Shown: piece after piece, positions 8,636 through 46,747 of the stretch
Layout of the letters: every line of letters begins with the position of its first letter
Numbering within the stretch: position 1 is the stretch's first letter
Assembly: GCA_016214075.1 (NCBI GenBank)
Contig: JACRPI010000036.1
Span: 2,376 to 66,375, forward strand
From: Candidatus Woesearchaeota archaeon
Lineage (GTDB): Archaea > Nanobdellota > Nanobdellia > Woesearchaeales > DSVV01
DNA: 64,000 nt
Reading direction: 5' to 3'
The notes under the pieces: generated by a model
Told to the model about the DNA's origin: nothing
Databases searched by the model: none
Seen by the model: the letters and a program-made list of their open reading frames with translations, nothing else
Position numbers and translations under genes: made by a program

Positions 8636-8745
8636 AGTTCCACCTTCCTTTCGGTTTTTATTTCAGCAGTGCAGAGCTGGTGTATTGCTACACATGTCTT
8701 TCAACTCAATGCCTGTGGTGTAAAGATATCTATAACCAAAGTTCC

Positions 8746-8818
8746 TTATATACCTCACAGCAGCGTGTCGAGTGGAGAATTCTAGTGTCGTTTACCGAGA
8801 ATAAAAGCACTGGACAAA
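8746..8818 (-). promoter_or_regulatory. Duplicated BRE/TATA promoter module, copy A (shared with 23577..23650)
   Basis: Minus strand reads GACACGCTGCTGTGAGGTATATAAGG. 28 nt identical to copy B, followed by a further degenerate conserved block (gagaataaRagcac..gacaaa). Confidence 0.5.
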
Positions 8819-8957
8819 TGAGTTTGTCGAGTGCAGAATAACTTCGTTAAATTCCGTTGTTATACACAATAAAAAATTCAATTTTAAATTATAGAAGGAA
8901 GATTTTCTTTAATGCGATGAGAAAAGTTTAAAAATCTTTTATCAATAACAGAATCAT

Positions 8958-23576: not shown

Positions 23577-23650
23577 CTTATATACCTCACAGCAGCGTGT
23601 CCAGTGTGGGCTGTGGAACAACTTTACTGAGAATAAGAGCACACGACAAA
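23577..23650 (-). promoter_or_regulatory. Duplicated BRE/TATA promoter module, copy B (shared with 8746..8818)
   Basis: Minus strand GACACGCTGCTGTGAGGTATATAAG lies 33 nt upstream of the KilA-N ATG. Same 28-mer as copy A plus a partly conserved upstream block. Confidence 0.55.
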
Positions 23651-23677
23651 GAAAAATGTCCTGTGCTAAAGATGAAA

Positions 23678-24667
23678 TTAAGAAGAAGCAAATACTTCCG
23701 GAAGATACGTGAATTTATACTCTTGTGTATATTGCATAAATTGATAATCTCGAATAATATCACTAAATTTGAGTCTCAACTCTTGAATATGGGCATAAAA
23801 TTCATCATTGCTTTTCACTTGAAATTCTGTCTCAAGATCAGCACCACCGACAAGTTCTGTTGTATGGACAGTGTTTGGGTGCTGATGGATGTAAGAGAAG
23901 ATTCTTCTCTTTTTTTCTGGCGTTATATTTTGTAAGGTGAGATGAAGCTTAAAATAGAGATATCCTAACTTATGAATGTTCAAAAATGGTTTAAAGCCAA
24001 TAATTATTCCTTTTTCTATAAGTTTCTTTATCCTATAGCGTACGACAATTTCTGTAGTTCCTATTTTTCTGGCTATGTCTATAGACTTCATTCGGGCATC
24101 TTTAAGAATAGTTTTGAGAATTTTATAATCCATTTCATCAATGATTTTAAATCCATATGTTTTATGTTCATCAAATCCCATGAGTAATGGCTTGATGGTG
24201 CCGCTTTTTTTCTGAAGGAGGAATTCTTTGTGATATATCCACATTCTTGTAACAATGGAAACATCATATTTTTCAATATAAAAACTAAATTTAAGAAGAA
24301 AAGCATCGATAAAATCCCTATACTCATAGACATTTTTGACAAAAATACCTGTGTTAATATCCCAAATTCCTTCAACTTTCGTTATCCAGCTTACTTTTTC
24401 TTTCAAGTATGCTATAATCTCCTCTTCTTTTGCCACAGATATATTTCGGAGCTTGAAGAATGTTCGATACCAGTCATAACCTAATTTCATTGAATTCAAA
24501 AGAGTCATAAAATAGTGAATATGACCTTCAGTGCACATCCTGTTTATTCGATAGCGGACAGAATCTCTACTCAAACCAACATGTTTCGCTATTTCTGCAT
24601 CAGATTGCCGTGCATTTTTTTCCAACTCGTAAAGTATTTTCCTATCTTTGAGATTAAGATCTGTCAT
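23678..24667 (-). CDS. Fused tandem Lrp/AsnC-type transcriptional regulator (two HTH + RAM units)
   Basis: 329 aa. Two repeats of the Lrp HTH pattern (LDRKILYELEKNARQSDAEIAKHVGLSRDSVRYRI and DYKILKTILKDARMKSIDIARKIGTTEIVVRYRIKKL). Confidence 0.65.
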   Translation of the reverse strand: MTDLNLKDRKILYELEKNARQSDAEIAKHVGLSRDSVRYRINRMCTEGHIHYFMTLLNSMKLGYDWYRTFFKLRNISVAKEEEIIAYLKEKVSWITKVEGIWDINTGIFVKNVYEYRDFIDAFLLKFSFYIEKYDVSIVTRMWIYHKEFLLQKKSGTIKPLLMGFDEHKTYGFKIIDEMDYKILKTILKDARMKSIDIARKIGTTEIVVRYRIKKLIEKGIIIGFKPFLNIHKLGYLYFKLHLTLQNITPEKKRRIFSYIHQHPNTVHTTELVGGADLETEFQVKSNDEFYAHIQELRLKFSDIIRDYQFMQYTQEYKFTYLPEVFASS

Positions 24668-36060: not shown

Positions 36061-36100
36061 GCTCAGTAAAGTCCTTGTATGACAACGCAATCTATTATTA
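36061..36100. repeat. 38-nt near-palindromic intergenic motif, copy 1 (duplicated at 60643..60680)
   Basis: gctcagtaaagtccttgtatgacaacgcaatctattatta versus gctgagcaagtccttgtatgacaacgcaatctattatta. Contains TTGTatgACAA inverted half-sites. Confidence 0.5.
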
Positions 36101-36944: not shown

Positions 36945-36992
36945 AGAAATGATTTCTAAAAATATATTTTAATTGTTATAATTATTGTTCAT

Positions 36993-37211
36993 GAGAGAAA
37001 AAGACGCTCGACAAATGCTCACGTCTTAACGCACAAGGTCCAAGAGAAAAGTTTGGCTTTGTGCGTTTCTCAGAGCAAAAAATAACAACATGGCCAGACG
37101 GAGCGAACGAGGTTCACTTACGAAGTGAGTGGTTCTCGTTCGCGGAGTAGGGCTTGTGGAGCAAAGCGACACAAGACCGTCTGTGCCAGTGTTGTTGTTA
37201 TTTTTTGCAAC
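36993..37211 (+). ncRNA. Structured sRNA candidate, family E, paralog 1 (about 219 nt)
   Basis: 5' block gagaaaaagacgctcgacaaatgctcacgtcttaacgcacaagg and 3' block gttgttgttattttttgcaac are near-identical to 45527..45727. Helices: gacg/cgtc, acgcacaagg/ggctttgtgcgt, long stem aaaaataacaacatggcca/tgccagtgttgttgttatttttt. TATA-like ttgttataatta upstream. Ends in oligo-T. Confidence 0.45.
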
Positions 37212-37267
37212 GTAGTGACTATAACGAACAAACCTTTAAAAACGAATTTTCATTACCTTCTCAAATA

Positions 37268-37588
37268 ATGAAGAGACTTATCAAGAACAAAAAAGCAGCG
37301 ATGCCCTTTGTAGTCGCGTTCGTGGTCGTCATTGCACTATTCATCATTTTCTCAAAGATAGTAAGCATTACCACAAGAGAATGCAGCAAAGACGGAGATT
37401 GCAGTAATGACAGTTATTGTGGCAGTGATTTTCAGTGCCATAAATATCCTGTAATTACGCAAGTGACCTACATTCCTGCTGCGTTAATAATTGGCGCGTG
37501 TATTGTTGCAGGAGCATTGCTTCTGAAGAAGAAAAAAGAGTATGAAGAAAGCCATGGACATGGCGGCGGCCACGGAGGCCATCATTAA
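37268..37588 (+). CDS. Small membrane/secreted Cys-rich protein with C-terminal HGHGGGHGGHH tail
   Basis: Start trimmed to MKRLIKNKK (the track ORF starts at 37154 inside the RNA element). Two TM helices, 6 Cys, Gly/His tail. Confidence 0.5.
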   Translation: MKRLIKNKKAAMPFVVAFVVVIALFIIFSKIVSITTRECSKDGDCSNDSYCGSDFQCHKYPVITQVTYIPAALIIGACIVAGALLLKKKKEYEESHGHGGGHGGHH

Positions 37589-37597
37589 TCTTAAAAA

Positions 37598-38209
37598 TTA
37601 TTCTTCTTCATCAGCGATAGAAGCAACCCAATCTTCTGGAATAATACTCATCATGCGGAATGCCATTGTTTTCGGATAGACCATAACGTCGCCTGCTTTG
37701 TATCCTTGGAAAAGGAAGAGCAGCATATTTTTATCTTCGTGAAGTTCTTCAAATGCATCAGAACGAACAGAAAAAAGCTGATTGGTATCGCGCATTGTTT
37801 GTAAAAGAGCAGCATCCTGAGCGTCATATGCAGAGGTATTGATAGCAACAACTTTGTAGTATGCGCCATTATCCAAAATTGCGCGATAATTTTTTTGTTT
37901 CACGAATGCAGCGATTTGACTTTCTTCAAGAACAGATTGTTTTAAAGAATGTTTTGCAGTCATGTTGACCATAACAATAGGAAAGAACAATGTATCATCC
38001 TCATGAATAAGATACAAAATCTGTTCCTCCCCAAGTTCTTGTTTGAGTTCCTGTATATCAGAATAGGTTAAGCTGATCGTGATCGCGACAAAAAGCGCGA
38101 GAATGAAGAGAAAAGTAACCACCACTTTCAGGACATTTTTGACCACAAAATAACAGACAATAGTACCAATGATGAGAACTGCTACCCACATGAGAAAGTA
38201 TGATTCCAT
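37598..38209 (-). CDS. Hypothetical membrane protein
   Basis: Start trimmed to MESYFLMWVAVLIIG. Two N-terminal TM helices. Confidence 0.45.
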   Translation of the reverse strand: MESYFLMWVAVLIIGTIVCYFVVKNVLKVVVTFLFILALFVAITISLTYSDIQELKQELGEEQILYLIHEDDTLFFPIVMVNMTAKHSLKQSVLEESQIAAFVKQKNYRAILDNGAYYKVVAINTSAYDAQDAALLQTMRDTNQLFSVRSDAFEELHEDKNMLLFLFQGYKAGDVMVYPKTMAFRMMSIIPEDWVASIADEEE

Positions 38210-38244
38210 ACATAAATTTAAGAATTGGAATTTTATATAGTTTC

Positions 38245-38670
38245 TTATTTTGAAAGGTGGAGAAATGCTGCAAGAGCGTCTTGTGTTGGTAATGTGAGGG
38301 GAGAAGGAAGGGTGTCTAAAGCAAACCACTGAACAGCCTCACATTTAGTAGGTTCTTTAATCGCTAACGATCCTCCAACAATTTTACTCAGATATTGTGG
38401 AGTAACCCAATGCTGTTTTTCATCATGCATGATATCGTCAGTCAAGCAGAGCAAATCAATAATTTCAATATGGATACCAAGTTCTTCAAAAATCTCTCGC
38501 TTGACACCATCATGAAATTTCTCATTGTAATCAAGAGCACCGCCTGGAATAGACCAAACACCGCAATTATTTTTGCATTGAGAACCACGTTTCATAAGAA
38601 GCACTTCATTCTTTTCATTAACAATAAATGCGCCGCAGCCAACGCCAATATAATCAAATCCTGGTTTCAT
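38245..38670 (-). CDS. NUDIX hydrolase
   Basis: 141 aa. Nudix box GGALDYNEKFHDGVKREIFEELG. Confidence 0.8.
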   Translation of the reverse strand: MKPGFDYIGVGCGAFIVNEKNEVLLMKRGSQCKNNCGVWSIPGGALDYNEKFHDGVKREIFEELGIHIEIIDLLCLTDDIMHDEKQHWVTPQYLSKIVGGSLAIKEPTKCEAVQWFALDTLPSPLTLPTQDALAAFLHLSK

Positions 38671-38703
38671 AAGAAGAAGAGAAACAAGACAACATTAAAA
38701 AGA

Positions 38704-39300
38704 TTATTCCTTCCTGCTGCAATACACGCGAAATCCACCTTTCTTGACAAGTGTCTCCACATTGCCAAAGACTTCTTTCATTTTCTTTTCCAGCATTGCG
38801 CCTCCTTTATTGTGCAGTGCGACAAGCTGCAGAAAACCACCAGAACGCACGTGCCCAACTGCCTGTTCAATGAGCTGATACACCAACGCTCGTCCTGCGT
38901 GATGAGGAGGATTGGTAATAATAGTGTCAAATTGTCGATCAGCAAGAGCAGAAAATAAATCACTTTCCATAATCTCAACAAGAGTATCATTCGCGCGCGC
39001 GTTCTCCGCGGCAGTTTTCAATGCGCGTTGATTTACATCGGTTAAAACAACAGTACAAGAAGGAAATGCTTTTTTGATGGAAATACCTAAAACACCAATC
39101 CCGCATCCTAAGTCAAGAACGTCCCAGCTTCTTTGTATTTTTACATGTTCTAAAAGAAGGAGTGTCGCGCTGTCCAGTTTCTCTGAGGAAAAAACACCAG
39201 AAACACAAATAAATGCAAGCGCCTGTCCATGATAGGAAGAAGTAACGCGTGTTTTTTTCAGCCGAGATTGTGGTTGGGGAGTAAAATAATGTTCTACCAT
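38704..39300 (-). CDS. Class I SAM-dependent methyltransferase (RsmC/RsmD/HemK-like small domain, NPPxH)
   Basis: 198 aa. VLDLGCGIGVLG motif I and TNPPHH motif IV. Confidence 0.7.
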   Translation of the reverse strand: MVEHYFTPQPQSRLKKTRVTSSYHGQALAFICVSGVFSSEKLDSATLLLLEHVKIQRSWDVLDLGCGIGVLGISIKKAFPSCTVVLTDVNQRALKTAAENARANDTLVEIMESDLFSALADRQFDTIITNPPHHAGRALVYQLIEQAVGHVRSGGFLQLVALHNKGGAMLEKKMKEVFGNVETLVKKGGFRVYCSRKE

Positions 39301-39302
39301 GA

Positions 39303-40127
39303 TTAAATCATAATATTGTAGAGCTTATACAAAAATCTATCGACTGCGCGGACAAGTTCTGCCTGTTCCCCTTGAATCGTGATGCAATTACCGTTTGCGT
39401 AAATAAGAGTTGGTGTTCCTGATTTGATATAAATCACCGGTTCAGTGGTAGAATCACAAGTCACAATAGGAACAGAAGCGCATTGTGCGTCTTCAACTGT
39501 GCACGCAGAAACTGGTGCAATGTTAAAAGTAGTGACTAAGTTTTGAGAAAGTTCTCCTGACGCGAGTGCGACATAGCCAAGATTTTCATCAGTAGGATTA
39601 AAAGTAAGATAGTAACGAAGGCTTGTGTTCGAAAGATTGCTCATGAGAACCGCGTTAAAAAATGGGTTGACATCTCCTGTAATAATAATGTCAGTCAAAT
39701 TCTTTGGACCATAATGCAAAGGAACATCATACAAATCTTCTGAGAAAGAATTGTAAATTTGTGTATACCATAATCCGTCGTAATACACAAAGCTATAACC
39801 ATTATATGTATAGCGATCGTCTTCATCAAGTTCTTCTTCAACAGTTTCCTGATGAAGCTCTGTTAAAGTCTGTGGATCTTGATCAAAAAATCGTGGAATA
39901 AGAAAAATTGTAAGAAGCACAAGAATGAAGATGCCAAGACCAATAAAGAATGCGGAGGTCGATGTTGAAGACTCATCTGAGTGTGAAGGAGCGCCTGCGG
40001 TCTTTTGATGCTGCGAATGCGCATGAGAAGCAGGAGTTTCAGAAGATGTTGTTGCGTCTCGAATTTGATACATCGCGAGATCTTCTCCAAGATCAGAATG
40101 CTCTGTTTTCTCTTTTTTATCGTCCAT
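39303..40127 (-). CDS. Hypothetical membrane-anchored protein with Ser/Thr/His-rich N-terminus
   Basis: 274 aa. One TM helix after a low-complexity N-terminal region. Confidence 0.4.
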   Translation of the reverse strand: MDDKKEKTEHSDLGEDLAMYQIRDATTSSETPASHAHSQHQKTAGAPSHSDESSTSTSAFFIGLGIFILVLLTIFLIPRFFDQDPQTLTELHQETVEEELDEDDRYTYNGYSFVYYDGLWYTQIYNSFSEDLYDVPLHYGPKNLTDIIITGDVNPFFNAVLMSNLSNTSLRYYLTFNPTDENLGYVALASGELSQNLVTTFNIAPVSACTVEDAQCASVPIVTCDSTTEPVIYIKSGTPTLIYANGNCITIQGEQAELVRAVDRFLYKLYNIMI

Positions 40128-40168
40128 GGAAAATCAGGAATAATTAGCCCTTTTTTAAGCTTATGAAT

Positions 40169-40771
40169 CTAAGAAGCATCCATGATGCCCGCAAGCGTAT
40201 ACACAACGCGATCTTTAAGTTTAAACAAGTCTTCCCATCGTGCTGCTTCAAGAACAACACAACCCGCTTCTTGGTAAATTCGTGGAGAAGTGACATTTGC
40301 CGTATGAATGAAGAGTGTTGGAAGGGGAGTAGAAACGCAGTCTAAAACAAGATAGGAATAAAGAGAAGAATTTGTCGTAAGTGCGAAAGATGTTTCTTGT
40401 CCAAAAGCAGGAAAGTCATCAACAGCAAGATCGCTGCGAAGGATTTCAATGTACTCAAGTGCACTATCTTCGGGGTCAAAGAGAATAACAGCTTGAGAGG
40501 AAGAACTAAGATAAGAAACAAGTGCACGATCAAAAGAAAGTGCTTCGAGAGAAGAAGGATAATTATAGCCATGAATATCTCCATAATCTGATTCTATGAA
40601 AAATCCTTCATCAGTAAAGGTGATATCGTGATCGTTGTATGCTTCAATAGTATCAGAAGAGCTTTGCGTTCCCTGCCAGATTGCGAGAACGCTCGAGATC
40701 ATGAGGAACACAATGATAAGGCTCATGATATTCTTTTTGTTCCAAAATCCTTCGTCTTTCTTTTTGATCAT
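40169..40771 (-). CDS. Hypothetical secreted/membrane-anchored protein
   Basis: 200 aa. N-terminal TM/signal anchor. Confidence 0.4.
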   Translation of the reverse strand: MIKKKDEGFWNKKNIMSLIIVFLMISSVLAIWQGTQSSSDTIEAYNDHDITFTDEGFFIESDYGDIHGYNYPSSLEALSFDRALVSYLSSSSQAVILFDPEDSALEYIEILRSDLAVDDFPAFGQETSFALTTNSSLYSYLVLDCVSTPLPTLFIHTANVTSPRIYQEAGCVVLEAARWEDLFKLKDRVVYTLAGIMDAS

Positions 40772-40888
40772 CGTACTGCAAAGTATAAAGTGATTTATAT
40801 GTTTTGTTATAGGAAGTGATATTGATAATCAATGTTTTTCTAGAATCAATTCTAAAAATAATCCATTTGCTATAATTAAGAAAGACAT

Positions 40889-41010
40889 GGGGAGTCTCAA
40901 GGACTGTCAGGCGATTTAAGCAGCAGTAAAGCAAGGAGTAAAAAAACACGCACCAAGAAAAGTAAGAAATGTCAGGGGGACCCATTGCACCAAAGTGCAA
41001 TGGGGGTATT
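40889..41010 (+). ncRNA. Structured sRNA candidate, family S, paralog 1
   Basis: gactgtcaggcgatttaagcagcagtaaagcaa...acgcaccaagaaaagtaagaaatgtcaggggga + hairpin cccattgcacCAAAgtgcaatggg + tattgg U-tract. About 75% identical to 56866..56998. ctataattaag TATA-like box about 25 nt upstream. Confidence 0.35.
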
Positions 41011-41102
41011 GGAAATTATTTTATGAATAGAAATTATGAGATAATCAAAATGAGAAAGAAGAACAAAAAGCATATAAGACATAAAGACAACACAAAACAA
41101 CA

Positions 41103-41795
41103 ATGAAAGAAAAACCGATCATTGAAGTAAAAAACGTCTGGAAAACATATTACATCGGAAAAACACGAGTCGATGCGCTGCGAGGAATATCGCTCACGAT
41201 CAACAAAGGAGAGTTTGTCGCGATTCAAGGCCCTTCAGGATCAGGAAAATCAACGTGCATGAATATCATTGGCTGCCTAGACATGCCAACAAAAGGAGAA
41301 GTGTATTTAGATGGACATGACATTAGGGAGTTTGAAGAATCTGAACTCAGCCTCTTAAGAGGAAAAAAGATTGGCTTTATTTTCCAACAGTTTAATCTCA
41401 TCCACACATTAACAGCAGAAAAAAATATTATGTTGCCGATGATTTTTCAGGGAACAGAAAGAGACATTCAGAAAGAGCGCGCAGCAGAGTTATTGGAGCT
41501 TGTAGAACTCAGTGATAGAAAAGAACATCGTCCTGGAGAACTCAGTGGCGGACAACAACAGAGAGTTGCGATTGCAAGAGCGCTTGCAAATGATCCTGAA
41601 GTATTAATTGCGGATGAGCCGACAGGAAATCTAGATTCAAAGACAGGTGCCTTGATTATTGAATTTTTGAAAGAATTAAATGAAAAAGGAAAAACAATTA
41701 TCATTGTCACGCACGATGAAAAAGTCGCAGAGCAGACAAAACGGATTTTATTGATAAAAGACGGAAAAATTATTAAAGAAACAAAAAAGGAGTAA
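41103..41795 (+). CDS. ABC transporter ATP-binding protein (MacB/LolD-type)
   Basis: 230 aa. Walker A GPSGSGKST, signature LSGGQQQRVAIARAL, Walker B. Confidence 0.9.
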   Translation: MKEKPIIEVKNVWKTYYIGKTRVDALRGISLTINKGEFVAIQGPSGSGKSTCMNIIGCLDMPTKGEVYLDGHDIREFEESELSLLRGKKIGFIFQQFNLIHTLTAEKNIMLPMIFQGTERDIQKERAAELLELVELSDRKEHRPGELSGGQQQRVAIARALANDPEVLIADEPTGNLDSKTGALIIEFLKELNEKGKTIIIVTHDEKVAEQTKRILLIKDGKIIKETKKE

Positions 41796-41800
41796 GCACG

Positions 41801-43078
41801 ATGAACACAATAAAAAAAGGAATACTCATTATAACAATGATGATCATGAGTATAATCATCATGCAAACTGCAACTGCAGACATTCTCGACAGCCCGCACA
41901 TAAACGCAACATTGAGTTATCAGGATCCTGATCCTGTGGATCCAGGAGAGATTGTAGAGTTACGCTTCAGCATAAAGAATGATGGCGCAAGCACAGCAAA
42001 GACAGTAGAGTTCGAGATAGAAGGAGAGTATCCATTGCTCCTTGCGAATGGAGAAGATGAAATTAAATCACTCGGAGACATCTCAGTCTATAATGCGGAT
42101 AAAATTGACACAGGAGAAACAACCCTCAAATACAAATTGATTGTCGATCCAAATGCAGCAGAAGGAGAATATGAAGTCACGTTACGATACAAAACAGAAG
42201 GCGGTGTGAGTAGAGGAAATTGGATAACACTAGATCCGTTTAGCGTTCAGGTGGGTGGAAAAGCGGCAGGTGTCGTGATTGAAGAAACAAGAACAACACC
42301 TGAGCGCGTCGCGCCAGGAGAGAGTGCAGATATTTCTATTATAATCACAAACAATGGAAACACATACATTGAAGACATGACAATCACATTAAACCTACAA
42401 AATACAACAGAGATTGCACCATTGAAAACAAGTAACGAAGTGATTATACGAAATATTAAGGGAGAAGAAAGCAAAGAGGCAAATTTTAGTTTGATTGTCG
42501 CGCCAGATGCTGCAGTGAAAGTGTACAAAATTCCAGTCACGCTCAAATATACAGACCAAAGAAATAATAAGTATGAAAAAAATACCTACATCTCAATCGT
42601 TGTCGACGCAGAACCAGAATATGTATTGAATATTGAAGAAAGTGAAGTCTACGAAGAAGATGTTGCTGGAAATATTGTGGTAAGTCTTTCAAACATCGGC
42701 GTCGCGAATCTCAACTATGCGACACTCACCCTGGAAGAAGGGGAATATTATACGATTCTTTCCAGTGACACTGTATACCTCGGAAATCTTGAAAGCGACG
42801 ATTATGAAACTGCGCAATTCAAAATATATGCAAAGGACTATGTGGAAGATTTGCCATTACAGTTTCGCTTGGTCTATAAAGACGCGTTCAATAAAAATTA
42901 TGACGAACAGATAACGCTGACCACAAAAATGTTCACCTCTTGGGAGGCGAGAAAGTACGGCCTAACAGAAAATGGAACAGGATTTACAACAGTATTGATA
43001 CTTCTTGGAGCTGGAGTGCTTGGATGGTATCTCTGGAAGCGGCATAAAAAAGCGCAAACCAGTCCAAAAACAAAATGA
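41801..43078 (+). CDS. Secreted beta-rich protein with C-terminal TM anchor (S-layer/CARDB-like repeats), ABC-operon associated
   Basis: 425 aa. N-terminal signal peptide, repeated beta-sandwich-like segments, C-terminal TM + basic tail. Confidence 0.45.
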   Translation: MNTIKKGILIITMMIMSIIIMQTATADILDSPHINATLSYQDPDPVDPGEIVELRFSIKNDGASTAKTVEFEIEGEYPLLLANGEDEIKSLGDISVYNADKIDTGETTLKYKLIVDPNAAEGEYEVTLRYKTEGGVSRGNWITLDPFSVQVGGKAAGVVIEETRTTPERVAPGESADISIIITNNGNTYIEDMTITLNLQNTTEIAPLKTSNEVIIRNIKGEESKEANFSLIVAPDAAVKVYKIPVTLKYTDQRNNKYEKNTYISIVVDAEPEYVLNIEESEVYEEDVAGNIVVSLSNIGVANLNYATLTLEEGEYYTILSSDTVYLGNLESDDYETAQFKIYAKDYVEDLPLQFRLVYKDAFNKNYDEQITLTTKMFTSWEARKYGLTENGTGFTTVLILLGAGVLGWYLWKRHKKAQTSPKTK

Positions 43079-44283
43079 GGACAGAAGAAACAACGCTTGC
43101 GTTGTATCAAGATTTAATTGTCATTGCATGGACAAATGTCTGGAAACGAAGATTGCGAAATGGACTTACTGTTTTAGGTATTGTCATTGCGATAACGACA
43201 ATATTCTCATTAGTTTCGATAGGAAATGGATTAGATCAAGGAATACGAAAAGAGTTTGAAGAAATAGGAACAAACAGAATCTATGTCACCTCTTCTGGAT
43301 CAAGCATTACAAGTTTGCAGGGAGGATTAACAGAAGAAGATGTCAAAACATTGGAAAGTATGAGTGAGTTTCTTTGGGTAACTCCCTATCTGCAGGAAAA
43401 AGTCACTGTAGAATACGCGAACAAGAAAAAAGTATTAACAGTATGGGCAACAACAACAGAACAGTTAGAAGAACGCTGGGATGATATTAATTTCGAAATA
43501 GAGTCCGGAAGAGTATTTGTCAGCGGAGAAAAGTATAGCGCCATTTTAGGCTATAAAACAGCGCACGAAATATTTGATAAAGAGATTCATGTCAACGAAA
43601 ATATTATTATCAATGACAAACGATTCAAAGTTGTGGGCATATTTGCACCGATTGGAAACCCTGAAGATGACAGTGTTGTGGAGCTTCCGCTGGATACTGC
43701 GCAGGAAATGTTTGGGAAGGGAGATCAAGTCTCGATTATTGAACTCGTCGTAAAAGAAGGCGTTGATCTGAACGAAGCAGCGGCAAAAGCAACAAGGGCA
43801 TTAGAACGAAAACGAGGAAATGATTTGTTTGAGATAGTAACACCAGACCAATTACTCCAACAATTTTCTACCATCCTTAAAATCATCAATGTGATTCTTG
43901 GGGCAATTGCAGGAATCTCATTAATTGTCGGAGGTATTGGCATTATGAACTCCACTTATACTTCTGTTTTAGAGAGGAAAAAAGACATTGGCATCATGAA
44001 AGCGATTGGCGCGAAAAATAGGTACATTCTTTTTTTATTCCTCGCAGAAGCGGGGTTTCTTGGATTTGTCGGAGGAGTAATTGGAATCGCGTTGGGATTC
44101 ATGATTGCGAAGATGACACAGTTTGGTGCTGCTGCTGCGGGATTCCAAATGCTTGCGGTGGAATTTAATTGGAAAATCATGCTCTTTAGTTTACTTTTTG
44201 CAGTCCTTTTTGGAATTGCCGCAGGAGCATTGCCTGCGCGAGAAGCGATGAAGAAACAAGTAGTGGATGTGTTGAGGAAATAA
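43075..44283 (+). CDS. ABC transporter permease, FtsX/MacB family
   Basis: 402 aa. N-terminal TM, large extracytoplasmic domain, C-terminal FtsX 3-TM region. Confidence 0.8.
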   Translation: MRTEETTLALYQDLIVIAWTNVWKRRLRNGLTVLGIVIAITTIFSLVSIGNGLDQGIRKEFEEIGTNRIYVTSSGSSITSLQGGLTEEDVKTLESMSEFLWVTPYLQEKVTVEYANKKKVLTVWATTTEQLEERWDDINFEIESGRVFVSGEKYSAILGYKTAHEIFDKEIHVNENIIINDKRFKVVGIFAPIGNPEDDSVVELPLDTAQEMFGKGDQVSIIELVVKEGVDLNEAAAKATRALERKRGNDLFEIVTPDQLLQQFSTILKIINVILGAIAGISLIVGGIGIMNSTYTSVLERKKDIGIMKAIGAKNRYILFLFLAEAGFLGFVGGVIGIALGFMIAKMTQFGAAAAGFQMLAVEFNWKIMLFSLLFAVLFGIAAGALPAREAMKKQVVDVLRK

Positions 44284-44284
44284 G

Positions 44285-45475
44285 ATGGTCACACAGCGGG
44301 AATATTATCAATATGTTTGGAATAATATTACAGAAAGAAAAGTACGGTCATGGCTGACAGTGCTTGGCATCATCATAGGGATTGCTGCGATTGTCAGTTT
44401 AGTGACGTTAAGTAAAGGAATGAATACTGCAGTGCAGGATCAGTTTGAAAAAATGGGAATCTCTTCGATTCGTGTTGTTCCTGGAGGATTACATGGTCCT
44501 CCAACAGGATCAATGGGATTTTCTATAGGTTTACAAGAAAAAATTGAAAATGTCAAAGGAGTGGATTATGCAAATCCAGTTCTCATTGATTATGGAACTG
44601 TAAAATCAAACAGAGAAGAAGAAACAGTGATGGTGAATAGTTACGATACGTCGCTCAGTGAGCGCGCGTTTGTCGATACAGATTTGCAAATAGAAGAAGG
44701 GAGATTTTTTGTTCCAGGAGAGCGAGGCAGCATTATTATTGGTTATGATATTGCGTATGATCTGTTTGACAAAGATATTGGAGCGAAAAATTCTGTGTTA
44801 ATTAATGACCAGAAATTCAAAGTGATTGGGATTTTAGAAGAATCAGGCACAGACGCGGATGACAGAATCTACATGGGTCGTGAAGACGCAGAAGTATTGT
44901 TTAACAAAAAAGATGTTGTCAATGTATTTGTCGTCCAAACCACAAAAGGAATGAACGCTGAAGAAGTTGGAGCGAAAATTGAACAGGAATTGTTGAAAAC
45001 ATTGGAAGATGAGCAGTTTGATGTGTTTACCCCTGAGCAATTATTGAAGCAGATTGGCGCGATGATTGGGGTTATTCAACTTGTGCTTGCGAGTATTGCG
45101 TCAATTTCCCTTGTTGTTGGCGCGATTGGCATTATGAACTCGATGTTTACCGCTGTTCTCGAGAGAACACAGGAGATTGGCGTGATGAAAGCGATTGGCG
45201 CGCCGAATAAAACGATTGTTATCTTTTTTATTATAGAAGCAGGGATGATGGGGTTTGCGGGAGGCGCTATCGGAACGCTGGTCGGAACCCTGCTGTCGTA
45301 TGGGGTGCAACTTGGCGCGTATGTCGCAGGCTATAATTTGTTTAAAGTGACGATTGATGTTTCGATGATTGTCTTAACATTGGTGCTTTCGTTTGTGTTA
45401 GGCGCAGCAGCTGGCGCGATTCCTGCGTATCGTGCTGCGCGAATGAAACCGATTGATGCGTTGAGATACGAATAA
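44285..45475 (+). CDS. ABC transporter permease, FtsX/MacB family (second copy)
   Basis: 396 aa. Paralogous architecture to the preceding gene. Confidence 0.8.
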   Translation: MVTQREYYQYVWNNITERKVRSWLTVLGIIIGIAAIVSLVTLSKGMNTAVQDQFEKMGISSIRVVPGGLHGPPTGSMGFSIGLQEKIENVKGVDYANPVLIDYGTVKSNREEETVMVNSYDTSLSERAFVDTDLQIEEGRFFVPGERGSIIIGYDIAYDLFDKDIGAKNSVLINDQKFKVIGILEESGTDADDRIYMGREDAEVLFNKKDVVNVFVVQTTKGMNAEEVGAKIEQELLKTLEDEQFDVFTPEQLLKQIGAMIGVIQLVLASIASISLVVGAIGIMNSMFTAVLERTQEIGVMKAIGAPNKTIVIFFIIEAGMMGFAGGAIGTLVGTLLSYGVQLGAYVAGYNLFKVTIDVSMIVLTLVLSFVLGAAAGAIPAYRAARMKPIDALRYE

Positions 45476-45526
45476 TGTTACATAAAGGAAATATTTAATT
45501 TGAAAGAAGTATAATACAATAATTCT

Positions 45527-45727
45527 AAGAGAAACAGACGCTCGACAAATGCTCGCGTCCTAACGCACAAAGTCTCACAGGAACGTTCGACTTTGTGCGT
45601 TTGTTAAGGCGAAAAATAACAACATGGCGCCGACGCGACGGGGGTTGACCCCTTCGGGGTGTCGCGTAGGACAAAATTAGTAGAATTTTGTCCGTAGGCC
45701 GCCATCGTTGTTGTTATTTTTTGCAAC
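45527..45727 (+). ncRNA. Structured sRNA candidate, family E, paralog 2 (about 201 nt)
   Basis: agagaaacagacgctcgacaaatgctcgcgtcctaacgcacaaagtc ... gccgccatcgttgttgttattttttgcaac. Same helices as paralog 1 with compensatory substitutions (acgcacaaagtc/gactttgtgcgt perfect). Central domain replaced by different hairpins (gggggttgaccccTTCGggg; ggacaaaatt..aattttgtcc). gtataatac TATA-like upstream. Confidence 0.45.
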
Positions 45728-45796
45728 TTTTGATAATTTTTAGACCAAGCGTAAGATCAAGTAAAACATATAAACAAATGGAGTTTCTTTTCTTGT

Positions 45797-45959: not shown

Positions 45960-46031
45960 GCCCCCGTAGCATAGTAGCCATTGCGTCGGTTTCGTAAACC
46001 GAAGGTCGTGGGTGCAACTCCCATCGGGGGC
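45960..46031 (+). tRNA. tRNA-Thr (anticodon CGU)
   Basis: Manual fold: acceptor GCCCCCG/CGGGGGC, D-stem GCA/TGC, anticodon stem TCGGT/ACCGA with loop TTCGTAA (anticodon CGT), T-stem GTGGG/CCCAT, T-loop TGCAACT. 72 nt, discriminator T, no encoded CCA. Followed by oligo-T. Confidence 0.7.
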
Positions 46032-46035
46032 TTTT

Positions 46036-46662
46036 TTAATCCTTCAACCTTCTTACTTTCTCTTTACAATATTCTACTTTTGTTTCAGAACCTAAATAAG
46101 TACAGAACGTCTCATCTTCGTTAGAAAGAGCAAACTGTTCTATGCATTTCTCAGAATCATCCCAGACTAGATAATCACTGCAAAATGTTTTTACATCTCT
46201 AAATTCCAAAATTCTATTAAAATATTCATAAGAAAATCCTTCACTATCATAATAAACCATCATCGTATCAAAATCAGTGGTATACATATTCGCAACATAG
46301 GCAATAAAAGTCTCGTCATCAATTTGTTCGAACTTTATTACCATAAAAGACGAGTAATAAACCCAGTATCTACAGACATTGAGAAAAGTCTGTTCATCAA
46401 CTTGTTTTTTATGATCATCAGACATATATTTGTATAATGCATTGCAATCTTCTTTGTTCATATAATAGACAACAGTCTCCGCAAATTGTTCTGCTTGCTC
46501 CGCAATATCATTTTCTGGTTCATCATTTACCCAAAGAGGTTCTTCAACAGTTTCTTGAACAACGGGAACTTCCTTTTCTTCTATACTTTCCGTAATTTCA
46601 GAACCACAAGAAAGAACAAATAAGAGAAGAACAAGCAACAAGCAAAAGAGTTTCTGTTTCAT
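46036..46662 (-). CDS. Predicted lipoprotein, hypothetical
   Basis: Start trimmed to MKQKLFCLLLVLLLFVLSCGSE (lipobox LSC). Acidic Cys-containing mature domain. Confidence 0.5.
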   Translation of the reverse strand: MKQKLFCLLLVLLLFVLSCGSEITESIEEKEVPVVQETVEEPLWVNDEPENDIAEQAEQFAETVVYYMNKEDCNALYKYMSDDHKKQVDEQTFLNVCRYWVYYSSFMVIKFEQIDDETFIAYVANMYTTDFDTMMVYYDSEGFSYEYFNRILEFRDVKTFCSDYLVWDDSEKCIEQFALSNEDETFCTYLGSETKVEYCKEKVRRLKD

Positions 46663-46747
46663 GAGGAGAAGTATATTTGTCTTGTTTAAAAATATAGTGC
46701 CCTTTTCCCCCACAACCATTAAAAACCAACCTGCATTTTTCTCCAAT

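Follow-up and report, generated by a model that had tools for sequence, protein, structure and literature searches.

Two related loci in a 64,000-nucleotide (64-kb) stretch of DNA from a Candidatus Woesearchaeota archaeon (contig JACRPI010000036.1; this whole stretch is called the window below) are probably representatives of a non-autonomous mobile cassette that carries a structured-RNA gene of ~200 nucleotides (nt) maintained by selection, found in Woesearchaeota and Nanoarchaeota of the DPANN archaea. We assign this reading a probability of roughly 0.6. The loci, here called E1 and E2, would represent subtypes A and B of a family of ~280-base-pair (bp) cassettes, in each of which ~60 nt of AT-rich DNA, containing a TATA-like box, precede a gene for a highly structured RNA of ~200-220 nt. 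Base pairing within the element is under selection, and its two 5' hairpins (P1 and P2), its long stem, and the hairpins in its interior are all supported by compensatory changes. Moreover, E1 and E2 are recent insertions between genes, and their sites show insertion polymorphism.

E1 and E2 share a direct repeat of 101 nt with 84% identity (36994-37094 versus 45528-45628), and their final 21 nt (37191-37211 and 45707-45727, gttgttgttattttttgcaac) are the same. These similarities bear out an earlier note on this DNA, made from its letters alone, which had proposed two related structured loci at these places. The 18-mer GACGCTCGACAAATGCTC occurs exactly twice in the window, compared with 0.06 occurrences expected by chance. 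Both copies have a 5' domain of ~85 nt with hairpins P1 and P2, which is followed by a short linker and a 16-bp A/U-rich stem that surrounds a Y-shaped interior of 84-102 nt. P1 consists of a 5- to 7-bp stem and a 13-nt loop (UCGACAAAUGCUC), and P2 of 10-13 bp. The features of the two copies are the following.

36946..37224, + strand: E1 cassette, 279 bp, with 3 bp at the orthologous site of the relative L098
36977..36982, + strand: E1 TATA-like box TATAAT, 26 nt upstream of P1, a putative promoter
36993-37211, + strand: E1, the RNA part of ~200-220 nt
37003..37025, + strand: E1 hairpin P1, a GACGC/ACGTC stem with the 13-nt loop TCGACAAATGCTC
37029..37066, + strand: E1 hairpin P2, ACGCACAAGG.. 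/ ..CTTTGTGCGT
37075..37090, + strand: E1 long stem, 5' arm, GCAAAAAATAACAACA; inverted repeat I1, 16 nt, 100% complementary
37091..37192, + strand: E1 interior, type A, enclosing a closing helix, two hairpins, and the junction GGAGTA
37193..37208, + strand: E1 long stem, 3' arm, with a T6 run at 37201-37206, a candidate archaeal terminator
45476..45760, + strand: E2 cassette, missing from the orthologous sites of L098/L099 and L105
45510..45515, + strand: E2 TATA-like box TATAAT, 27 nt upstream of P1, a putative promoter
45527-45727, + strand: E2, the RNA part of ~200-220 nt
45537..45559, + strand: E2 hairpin P1, from the predicted fold and the leader alignment
45562..45601, + strand: E2 hairpin P2; inverted repeat I2, 13 nt, 100% complementary
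45609..45624, + strand: E2 long stem, 5' arm, from the predicted fold
45625..45708, + strand: E2 interior, type B, with a closing helix, hairpin 1, the junction TAGGAC, and hairpin 2
45709..45724, + strand: E2 long stem, 3' arm, with a T6 run at 45717-45722

The predicted + strand folds have energies of -101.4 kcal/mol for E1 and -83.1 kcal/mol for E2, which correspond to z scores of -9.8 and -6.9 relative to dinucleotide shuffles, and none of 200 shuffles folds as well. The arrangement of hairpins closed by a long stem in both copies, also suggested previously, is therefore well founded. In this stem (GCAAAAAAUAACAACA / UGUUGUUAUUUUUUGC), positions 37075-37090 pair with 37193-37208 in E1, and 45609-45624 pair with 45709-45724 in E2; the T6 run lies within the 3' arm. 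In fact, all complete copies of the family have a run of T5-T7 within this arm, and the A-tract/T-tract stem would read as an oligo-T terminator on either strand. Counted from the first G of P1, TATAAT is at -26 in E1, at -27 in E2, and at -25 in a copy from another genome (L007), whereas copies bounded by terminal inverted repeats (TIRs; see below) have it at -31. A TATA-like hexamer occurs at -22 to -36 in 11 of the 18 copies, which is weak evidence in AT-rich DNA. Both signals of the proposed framing, a TATA-like box and an oligo-T end, are present, which in this AT-rich background is no more than consistent with an independently transcribed small-RNA gene.

The element does not correspond to any family in Rfam 15. 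At the gathering score, a scan of E1 and E2 with Rfam 15 gave no match, in agreement with the earlier note, which had seen an undescribed structured-RNA family without resemblance to 5S rRNA, signal recognition particle (SRP) RNA, RNase P RNA, or tRNA. At E≤10, only chance-level matches to microRNAs and small nucleolar RNAs appear, the best with 20 bits versus a cutoff of 96. In 14 related loci, the Rfam matches are to SRP RNA and tRNAs only, and lie elsewhere on the loci. Inspection by eye revealed no K-turn, T-loop, C/D box, or H/ACA box motifs, and no description of this RNA element family was found in the literature searched. A coding function is not indicated: reading frames are filled with stop codons, and the open reading frames (ORFs) that begin at a conserved ATG are short and conserved in neither length nor sequence. 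A relative of SRP RNA was considered, since in both layouts a pair of hairpins at the 5' end is followed by a long helix that leads to a two-hairpin junction at its far end. However, this candidate was rejected: neither models nor sequence match, and a genuine SRP RNA lies beside one copy.

Further copies, which the earlier note had suggested looking for, exist outside the window. They were sought by a pattern scan with the P1 18-mer, and then with a covariance model of the leader (model R1). The scan found three true copies in the metagenome-assembled genome CAYLMH01 of the Genome Taxonomy Database, and 10 further matches, in bacteria, that are due to chance. In the JGI metagenomes Ga0233425 and Ga0247727, 12 of the 35 loci matched by the 18-mer hold a true copy. 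Model R1 added one copy in which the P1 loop is changed (L035 7071-7147). Thus, 16 copies join the two in the window, for a total of 18 in four data sets. The P1 loop is the same in 17 of the 18 copies, an invariance that is partly ascertainment because the loop sequence was the search query. More generally, all copies were found through P1, so the seeming invariance of P1 and the narrow host range are partly artefacts of the search. Patterns for P1, the stem, and the junction had only chance matches in IMG/VR viral contigs, and spurious ORFs called across the element, used as another route to additional copies, yielded no candidate.

The interior of the element occurs as two subtypes, A (as in E1) and B (as in E2), which share one common plan. 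It had been proposed that the middle sequences are entirely different and have been swapped; instead, the two conserved subtypes have in common a GUAGGAC junction, a closing helix, and a two-hairpin layout. Both consist of a 4- to 6-bp helix UGGC/GCCA, the closing helix, hairpin 1, the junction with GUAGGAC, and hairpin 2, and both have a 3- to 5-nt bulge in the 3' strand where the interior joins the long stem. Type A is also found in L007, L008, L045, L022, L030, L034, L041, and L035, and type B in L009, which derives from another genome; L044 is intermediate. In E1, the type A interior has a 4-bp TGGC/GCCA helix, a 5-bp closing helix, a GTT/GTT internal loop in hairpin 1, and a 4-nt bulge in the 3' strand. 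In the type B interior of E2, the apical stem of hairpin 1 is CCCC/GGGG with a TTC loop, and hairpin 2 is formed by GGACAAAATT/AATTTTGTCC. The hairpin tips vary widely: at one extreme is a short GA...GA tip, at the other a hairpin 2 extended by 16 bp, and hairpin 1 of L035 contains ~100-nt insertions. In type A, two nucleotides beside the closing helix vary without compensation, and the third pair of hairpin 2 switches between G·A and A·G. The junction is placed accordingly, as the 5-bp closing helix, GGA, hairpin 1, GGAGUA, and hairpin 2. Within a model of this junction, AGUA opposite GGA/GAA may form an S-turn.

Several alignments bear on the conservation of pairing. In the leader alignment (A2, 15 sequences), 97.7% of cells are paired and seven pairs are changed on both sides, whereas sliding the partners reduces pairing to 22-58%. 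In P2, 6 of the 12 pairs are changed on both sides among the 15 copies. The alignment of the long stem with interior A (A4, eight sequences) is 97.1% paired with nine two-sided pairs, and none of 500 shuffles reaches any of these measures; 4 of the 15 pairs in the E1-type long stem covary. Interior B together with the stem (A5, two sequences with 91% identity) is 100% paired with six two-sided changes. The compensatory change in P2 that the earlier note had described between E1 and E2 is partly one-sided (G·U versus A-U), and the convincing covariation comes from the copies in other genomes. Subtypes A and B are each present in at least two genomes and have diverged with compensation.

In the leader and type A alignments taken together, G·U pairs outnumber A·C mismatches by 21 to 7 when read on the + strand, which favors the + strand. 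Consistent with this strand, E1 folds 14 kcal/mol better there than on the - strand (-101.4 versus -87.7 kcal/mol).

The window itself is a segment of an archaeal chromosome, with genes for A-type ATP synthase subunits A, B, and I, RLI/ABCE1, SerRS, and Trm61/GCD14. At the gathering score, Rfam detects only a 5S rRNA (544-660, - strand) and a tRNA-Thr (45960-46032) in its 64 kb. Contigs of syntenic relatives were fetched by way of homologues of a MacB-type permease, whose source labels are Woesearchaeota or Nanoarchaeota. The identity of the MacB protein to that of the window is 92% for L098/L099, 88% for L105, 76% for L100/L101, and 63% for L103, with other homologues at 77% and 69%. Window and L098 are collinear with ~82-84% nucleotide identity, and BLASTN shows two clean breaks, one at each element.

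At the E1 site, the BLASTN blocks end at 36945 in the window and 2899 in L098, and resume at 37225 and 2903, respectively. The distance from the Trm61/GCD14 gene to the next gene is 48 nt in L098, 25 nt in L100, and 48 nt in L103, compared with 323 nt in the window, where E1 is contained in this spacer. In L100 and L103, the TATA box of the next gene overlaps or abuts the Trm61/GCD14 stop codon.

At the E2 site, the block on the left ends at 45475 in the window and 11191 in L098, and that on the right begins at 45751 and 11182, an overlap of 10 nt, so that window positions 45476-45750 face nothing in L098. The last 10 nt of the E2 cassette (45751-45760, GTAAGATCAA) agree with the target GTATGAGTAA at 7 of 10 positions; that is, 10 nt of the empty site align to both flanks, with 7/10 matches each. 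From these letters, it is possible that the terminal 10 nt are a degenerate target duplication. The empty sites read GAGTAA, then GTAAAACATATAAAC in L098 and L099, and GAATAA, then AACATATAAAC in L105. In L098/L099 and L105, nothing separates the stop codon of the permease gene from the promoter of the zinc-ribbon gene, downstream of which is tRNA-Thr, while in the window E2 lies between the two. The insertion has thus been accommodated neatly after a stop codon and before the promoter that comes next. Among public contigs, a single one (L051, Logan contig SRR12113407_744010) encodes exactly the permease of the window, and it stops 166 nt past the gene, inside E2, as is consistent with a repeat that breaks short-read assemblies.

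Because both copies are missing from the orthologous sites of close relatives, E1 and E2 are insertions. Moreover, ~109 kb of relatives contain no copy according to the leader model or to motif searches with the stem, junction, and P1. The inserted cassettes of 279-285 bp (~280 bp including the promoter region) are non-coding, and start 57-61 nt upstream of P1 with AT-rich sequence that contains TATAAT. Approximately 50 nt upstream of P1, a ATGATTTCTA-like sequence is common to E1, E2, and the TIR-bounded copies of Ga0233425; together with the insertion boundaries, this shows that the cassette includes the upstream AT-rich region. No TIRs are present at the empty-site boundaries of the window copies, where there is only an AT-rich 12-nt subterminal match (83%) at E1, and the E1 flanks show TATAA-like similarity only. 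In this respect, the observation that the window copies lack TIRs was correct, and no clean target duplication was seen.

Two other stretches of the window also stand out in the comparison with L098. Directly after tRNA-Thr, a 671-bp segment (46037-46707) stands where L098 has 36 nt; it carries a minus-strand ORF (in ORF 46036-46746) without a Pfam match, and is a lineage-specific gene insertion beside a tRNA gene. Beside the 5S rRNA gene, 91 nt at 415-505 are 81% identical to L098 14196-14283, which is non-syntenic in the relative, and are possibly another small relocated element.

The earlier note had treated the two loci as fixed paralogous small RNA (sRNA) genes, which does not agree with their absence from orthologous sites. 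A related alternative is that they are vertically inherited sRNA paralogues of the host that relatives have lost, with the TIR-bounded copies described below resulting from separate capture by a transposon. Such an origin would fit the presence of each subtype, diverged by compensatory changes, in at least two genomes, which implies that the RNA types are old, and also the observation that conservation stops near the predicted transcript ends in most copies. However, it requires two independent precise losses in L098, and likewise a loss in L105 at the E2 site, and three relatives whose MacB identities are 92%, 76%, and 63% have only 25-48 nt at the compact E1 site. Also, synteny of copies between genomes is not seen in any case, some copies are truncated or have no interior, and copies in Ga0233425 are near-identical over several contigs and have TIRs and duplications. 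We therefore consider vertical inheritance quite unlikely.

In the Ga0233425 lineage, the element bears the signature of a DNA transposon. In L041 and L030, the unit including its upstream region is bounded by an 18-bp TIR, CAATGTC[A/G]TTAAGTTAAG, and the 18-nt repeat CAATGTCATTAAGTTAAG of L030/L041 is the perfect reverse complement of the right end. Exact 9-bp direct repeats that differ between the loci (GGAGCCACC in L041, CGTAGCAAG in L030) adjoin the TIRs, and it is the TIRs and these locus-specific repeats that constitute the signature. The Ga0233425 copies are near-identical on several contigs; what distinguishes them is the presence of entire hairpin modules (X and Y) or the loss of the interior. 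For example, L015 1013-1123 and L028 5455-5565 retain the upstream region, P1, and P2, and have lost the long stem and interior, whereas L037 7321-7461 is a truncated relic in which the 5' half of P2 is fused directly to the 3' half of hairpin 1. The earlier conclusion that the loci represent a structured RNA rather than a transposon is thus half right: covariation and folding support the RNA, but the element is also mobile, given the empty sites and, elsewhere, TIRs with 9-bp repeats. Target-site duplications had been named as an observation that would refute the RNA; the window has no clean example, but exact 9-bp repeats occur at L041 and L030. No matching autonomous element was found in the genome and metagenome scans, which were made for the P1 pattern, and no transposase family recurs among 85 neighboring ORFs.

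Additional short inverted or dispersed repeats are located around the element in Ga0233425 (L028 5380-5400/5610-5630, L041 4580-4600, and L015 900-930; GCTTCATCCAAAAA / TTTTTGGATGAAGC and GAAGGCGCTGCACTGC), which suggests nested small mobile elements. One L030 copy adjoins, at its right TIR, an archaeal SRP RNA (L030 3257-3528, - strand, 124 bits). In the Rfam alignment of this SRP RNA, 40 model positions around the expected helix 6 have no counterpart.

Mobility raises the question of whether the conserved pairing functions in DNA. The hairpins might be single-stranded DNA structures that are read by a strand-specific transposase (HUH/Y1, as in IS200/IS605 and the palindrome-associated elements derived from it) or by another recombinase, and the RNA would be a by-product. 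Several observations are suggestive of this: the window copies are insertions without TIRs or clean duplications, hairpins are near both ends, and the excess of G·T (21) over A·C (7) is as compatible with hairpins in top-strand DNA as with RNA. In addition, the E2 insertion is preceded by TAA and has TCAA at its end, and for E1 the corresponding letters are TATGA and TATAA, loosely like 4- to 5-nt cleavage sites. IS200/IS605-type elements insert 3' of a fixed target of 4-5 nt, whereas the junction tetranucleotides of E1 and E2 differ. However, the hairpins are not subterminal, since they lie 45-60 nt from the left end. Hairpins at the left and right ends of IS200/IS605 elements are alike, whereas P1, P2, and the long stem are mutually dissimilar. 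Such a mechanism has no use for a Y-shaped interior of ~100 nt whose junction is conserved and whose arms covary, and the unit has a TATA-like box and a structured part that ends exactly in a T-run. Moreover, another lineage moves the same unit with classical TIRs and 9-bp duplications, which implies that the internal structure is not what that transposase reads, and no TnpA/TnpB-like gene recurs near copies. A function of the fold in DNA is therefore unlikely, yet it comes closest among the alternatives.

The neighbors of the copies are housekeeping genes, no copy has the same neighbors in two genomes, and all-against-all BLAST of neighboring ORFs together with Pfam searches of 85 neighbors revealed no recurrent protein. 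In particular, no gene for a recombinase, TnpA, TnpB, or IscB was found beside the copies. Of 11 scorable copies without TIRs, 10 lie 60-120 nt upstream of a co-directional gene. The co-orientation is marginal (rough binomial p ~0.03 if 60% of neighboring genes are co-directional), and may have less to do with function than with where insertions are tolerated. The genes downstream differ from copy to copy without being related, and each has its own box, similar to a B recognition element (BRE) and TATA, 25-35 nt before the ATG. Both the membrane-protein gene downstream of E1 and the zinc-ribbon gene and tRNA-Thr downstream of E2 are present in relatives without the element. Consequently, the link to small downstream genes that the earlier note had drawn dissolves, and these genes are incidental neighbors. 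Duplexes of the element with its own downstream region are energetically no better than with those of other copies, except where the TIR is included. For the P1 loop, 12 target sites with at most three mismatches are found in the window (6.7 expected), none of which is convincing.

These results also bear on whether the element is a cis-acting intergenic module that serves as a bidirectional terminator or insulator, as a leader for the downstream gene, or both. The frequent position upstream of a co-directional gene would suit a leader, and the A-tract/T-tract stem, readable as a terminator on both strands, would suit an insulator. However, the genes concerned are unrelated and have BRE/TATA-like boxes of their own, they persist in relatives that lack the element, no element-specific complementarity to the downstream region is seen, and the co-orientation is barely beyond chance. 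A terminator also has no need for P1, P2, or a conserved three-way junction. We regard such a cis-acting module as improbable.

The layout of the element also brings to mind archaeal rRNA units, in which a promoter and leader hairpins precede a long stem that encloses an RNA. Circular pre-rRNAs are the subject of a preprint. By analogy, the leader and long stem could act as a processing stem, and the interior could be cut out by the splicing endonuclease at a bulge-helix-bulge, then circularized or released; the stem does carry conserved bulges. In a bulge-helix-bulge, a helix of 4 bp lies between two bulges of 3 nt, one in each strand, whereas the bulges here are of 4 nt and 1 nt, both in the 3' strand, and 4-5 bp apart. 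Furthermore, the sequence after the leader contains neither an rRNA nor a tRNA nor another known RNA at any of 16 loci, and the 5S rRNA gene in the window does not have this leader. A processing cassette of this type is thus highly improbable.

Two additional candidates were rejected. In integron attC sites, the cassette boundary falls within the 3' arm of the hairpin (at the GTT core), but the insertion here extends 16 nt (E1) or 26-36 nt (E2) past the hairpin and 57-61 nt upstream of P1. Retrons have an adjacent reverse transcriptase and an RNA whose extreme 5' and 3' ends pair (a1/a2). No reverse transcriptase is found beside the window copies or among recurrent neighbor families, and the 3' end of the element pairs with an internal A-tract rather than with the 5' end.

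We propose that the family functions as a mobile RNA gene in the following manner. Archaeal RNA polymerase would start a few nucleotides upstream of P1, directed by the TATA-like box, and would stop in the T5-T7 run within the 3' arm of the long stem. Because termination would occur inside this arm, the U-tail at the 3' end would pair with the upstream A-tract, and this would give a closed, exonuclease-resistant end. The 13-nt P1 loop, P2, the bulged helix AACAACAUGGC/GCCAU(N)GUUGUUGUU, whose sequence is conserved and whose bulge is in the 3' strand, and the three-way junction (GGAGUA / GGA) would be the surfaces recognized by one or more trans-acting partners, most likely proteins, while the hairpin tips would be free to vary. 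The cassette would move as DNA: in one lineage, by a transposase that acts on 18-bp TIRs and makes 9-bp target duplications, and in the lineage of the window, by a mechanism that leaves at most a degenerate direct repeat of ~10 bp.

In this model, we tentatively favor an RNA that is bound by protein and whose 3' end is protected. Its likeliest role would be that of a selfish or accessory ribonucleoprotein RNA that aids the persistence or movement of the cassette, or that makes insertion harmless through the two-way terminator. The interior is conserved and the ends change, which is the reverse of what is normal for a transposable element of the miniature inverted-repeat type (MITE), and which argues that selection acts on the RNA or, with lower probability, on a fold of single-stranded DNA. 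A more speculative version, which we hold to be unlikely, is that the RNA is no passenger but the active principle of a new kind of archaeal mobile element: the cassette, lacking any protein, would use its folded RNA as a guide, scaffold, or handle for an enzyme encoded elsewhere. It would then be an archaeal counterpart of bridge-RNA or omega-RNA systems, or of short interspersed nuclear elements (SINEs). Such activity would explain a conserved RNA fold combined with unconserved DNA ends.

Several points weigh against a mobile RNA gene. No protein partner was identified among the neighbors. The window copies are without TIRs, and the direct repeat is an imperfect one of 10 nt at E2, with none detected by BLAST at E1. 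For E2, precise loss in relatives is a formal possibility; for E1, such loss is less probable, given that the spacer has its compact ancestral form in each of three relatives that differ in their distance from the window. The conserved pairing with its G·T bias could also reflect single-stranded DNA hairpins. The TATA-like boxes are weak evidence, since the spacers are AT-rich. Finally, the use of an exact P1 18-mer as the query biases both how broad the family looks and how invariant P1 seems.

The element resembles MITEs in that it is short (~280-330 bp), encodes no protein, has several copies, is intergenic, and exhibits presence/absence polymorphism, and, in one lineage, has 18-bp TIRs and 9-bp target duplications. 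In MITEs, the ends are conserved and the interior drifts. In contrast, the five-helix interior of this element is conserved with compensatory changes, its ends differ between lineages, and the window copies have no TIR. Pneumococcal BOX elements are modular intergenic repeats of the form boxA-boxB(n)-boxC. Like them, the present family has conserved end modules, variable numbers of internal hairpins, and a strong fold, and the Ga0233425 copies gain or lose hairpin modules X and Y or the whole interior. However, the sequences are unrelated, the host is an archaeon, a TATA-like box and an oligo-T run frame the fold, and two subtypes are conserved between genomes.

SINEs such as Alu and B1, which are derived from 7SL RNA, are likewise selfish, multi-copy genes for a folded small RNA. 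Our element is unlike them in that it has no similarity to SRP RNA and its cassette holds DNA on both sides of the predicted transcript. Also, it has the signature of a DNA transposon (TIR and 9-bp duplication) and no A-tail, and hence does not move by retroposition. In Y RNAs and vault RNAs, the ends pair in a long stem, there are conserved stem motifs and a variable interior, and the 3' end is a U-tail. The paralogues described here similarly combine a bulged conserved stem with an interior that varies and a 3' end rich in U, and this suggests a protein scaffold. However, this RNA has an extra conserved 5' domain (P1 and P2) and a mobile gene, no Ro- or vault-type protein was found, although no search aimed at one was made, and the likeness is one of architecture only. 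A further parallel is with guide or scaffold RNAs carried by mobile elements, such as the bridge RNA of IS110 and the omega RNA of IS200/IS605 elements (see PMC12558985). These also are structured non-coding RNAs of 150-250 nt that belong to mobile elements. Unlike these systems, copies of our element have no recombinase, TnpB, or IscB beside them, and their variable parts are paired stems rather than open guide loops.

Other repeats in the window are separate from this family. A second small family is found at 8745-8850 and 23577-23690 (+ strand), with 97% identity over the first 30 nt, which start with the TATA-like sequence CTTATATACC. The copies have a common GAGAATAA[A/G]AGCAC block followed by a hairpin with compensatory differences between the two stems (GCACTGGACAAA..TTTGTCGAGTGC versus GCACACGACA..TGTCCTGTGC). 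This may be another sRNA family, with fold z scores of only -1.9 and -1.25. Additionally, a 32-nt exact repeat (AAGTCCTTGTATGACAACGCAATCTATTATTA) occurs in two intergenic spacers (36069-36100 and 60650-60681, + strand), the second copy being followed by a T-run. No fold signal was detected for this repeat.

Small non-coding mobile elements and sRNA families are each known kinds of sequence. What is new is the combination of a DPANN host, a covarying RNA fold, two conserved subtypes, lineage-specific ends, and recent insertion. DPANN archaea have tiny genomes with little spare DNA, and to our knowledge almost nothing is known of their non-coding RNAs and mobile elements. The element reverses the pattern of small transposons, in that a five-helix interior is kept by compensatory mutation while ends and mode of movement are specific to the lineage. 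The family breaks assemblies as a repeat, and merits a covariance model so that its members are not left as "intergenic". If the RNA is made, it would be one of two things: a new ribonucleoprotein RNA whose gene spreads selfishly, or an RNA on which the mobility of the element itself depends. Either outcome, if true, would be a new entry in archaeal RNA biology.

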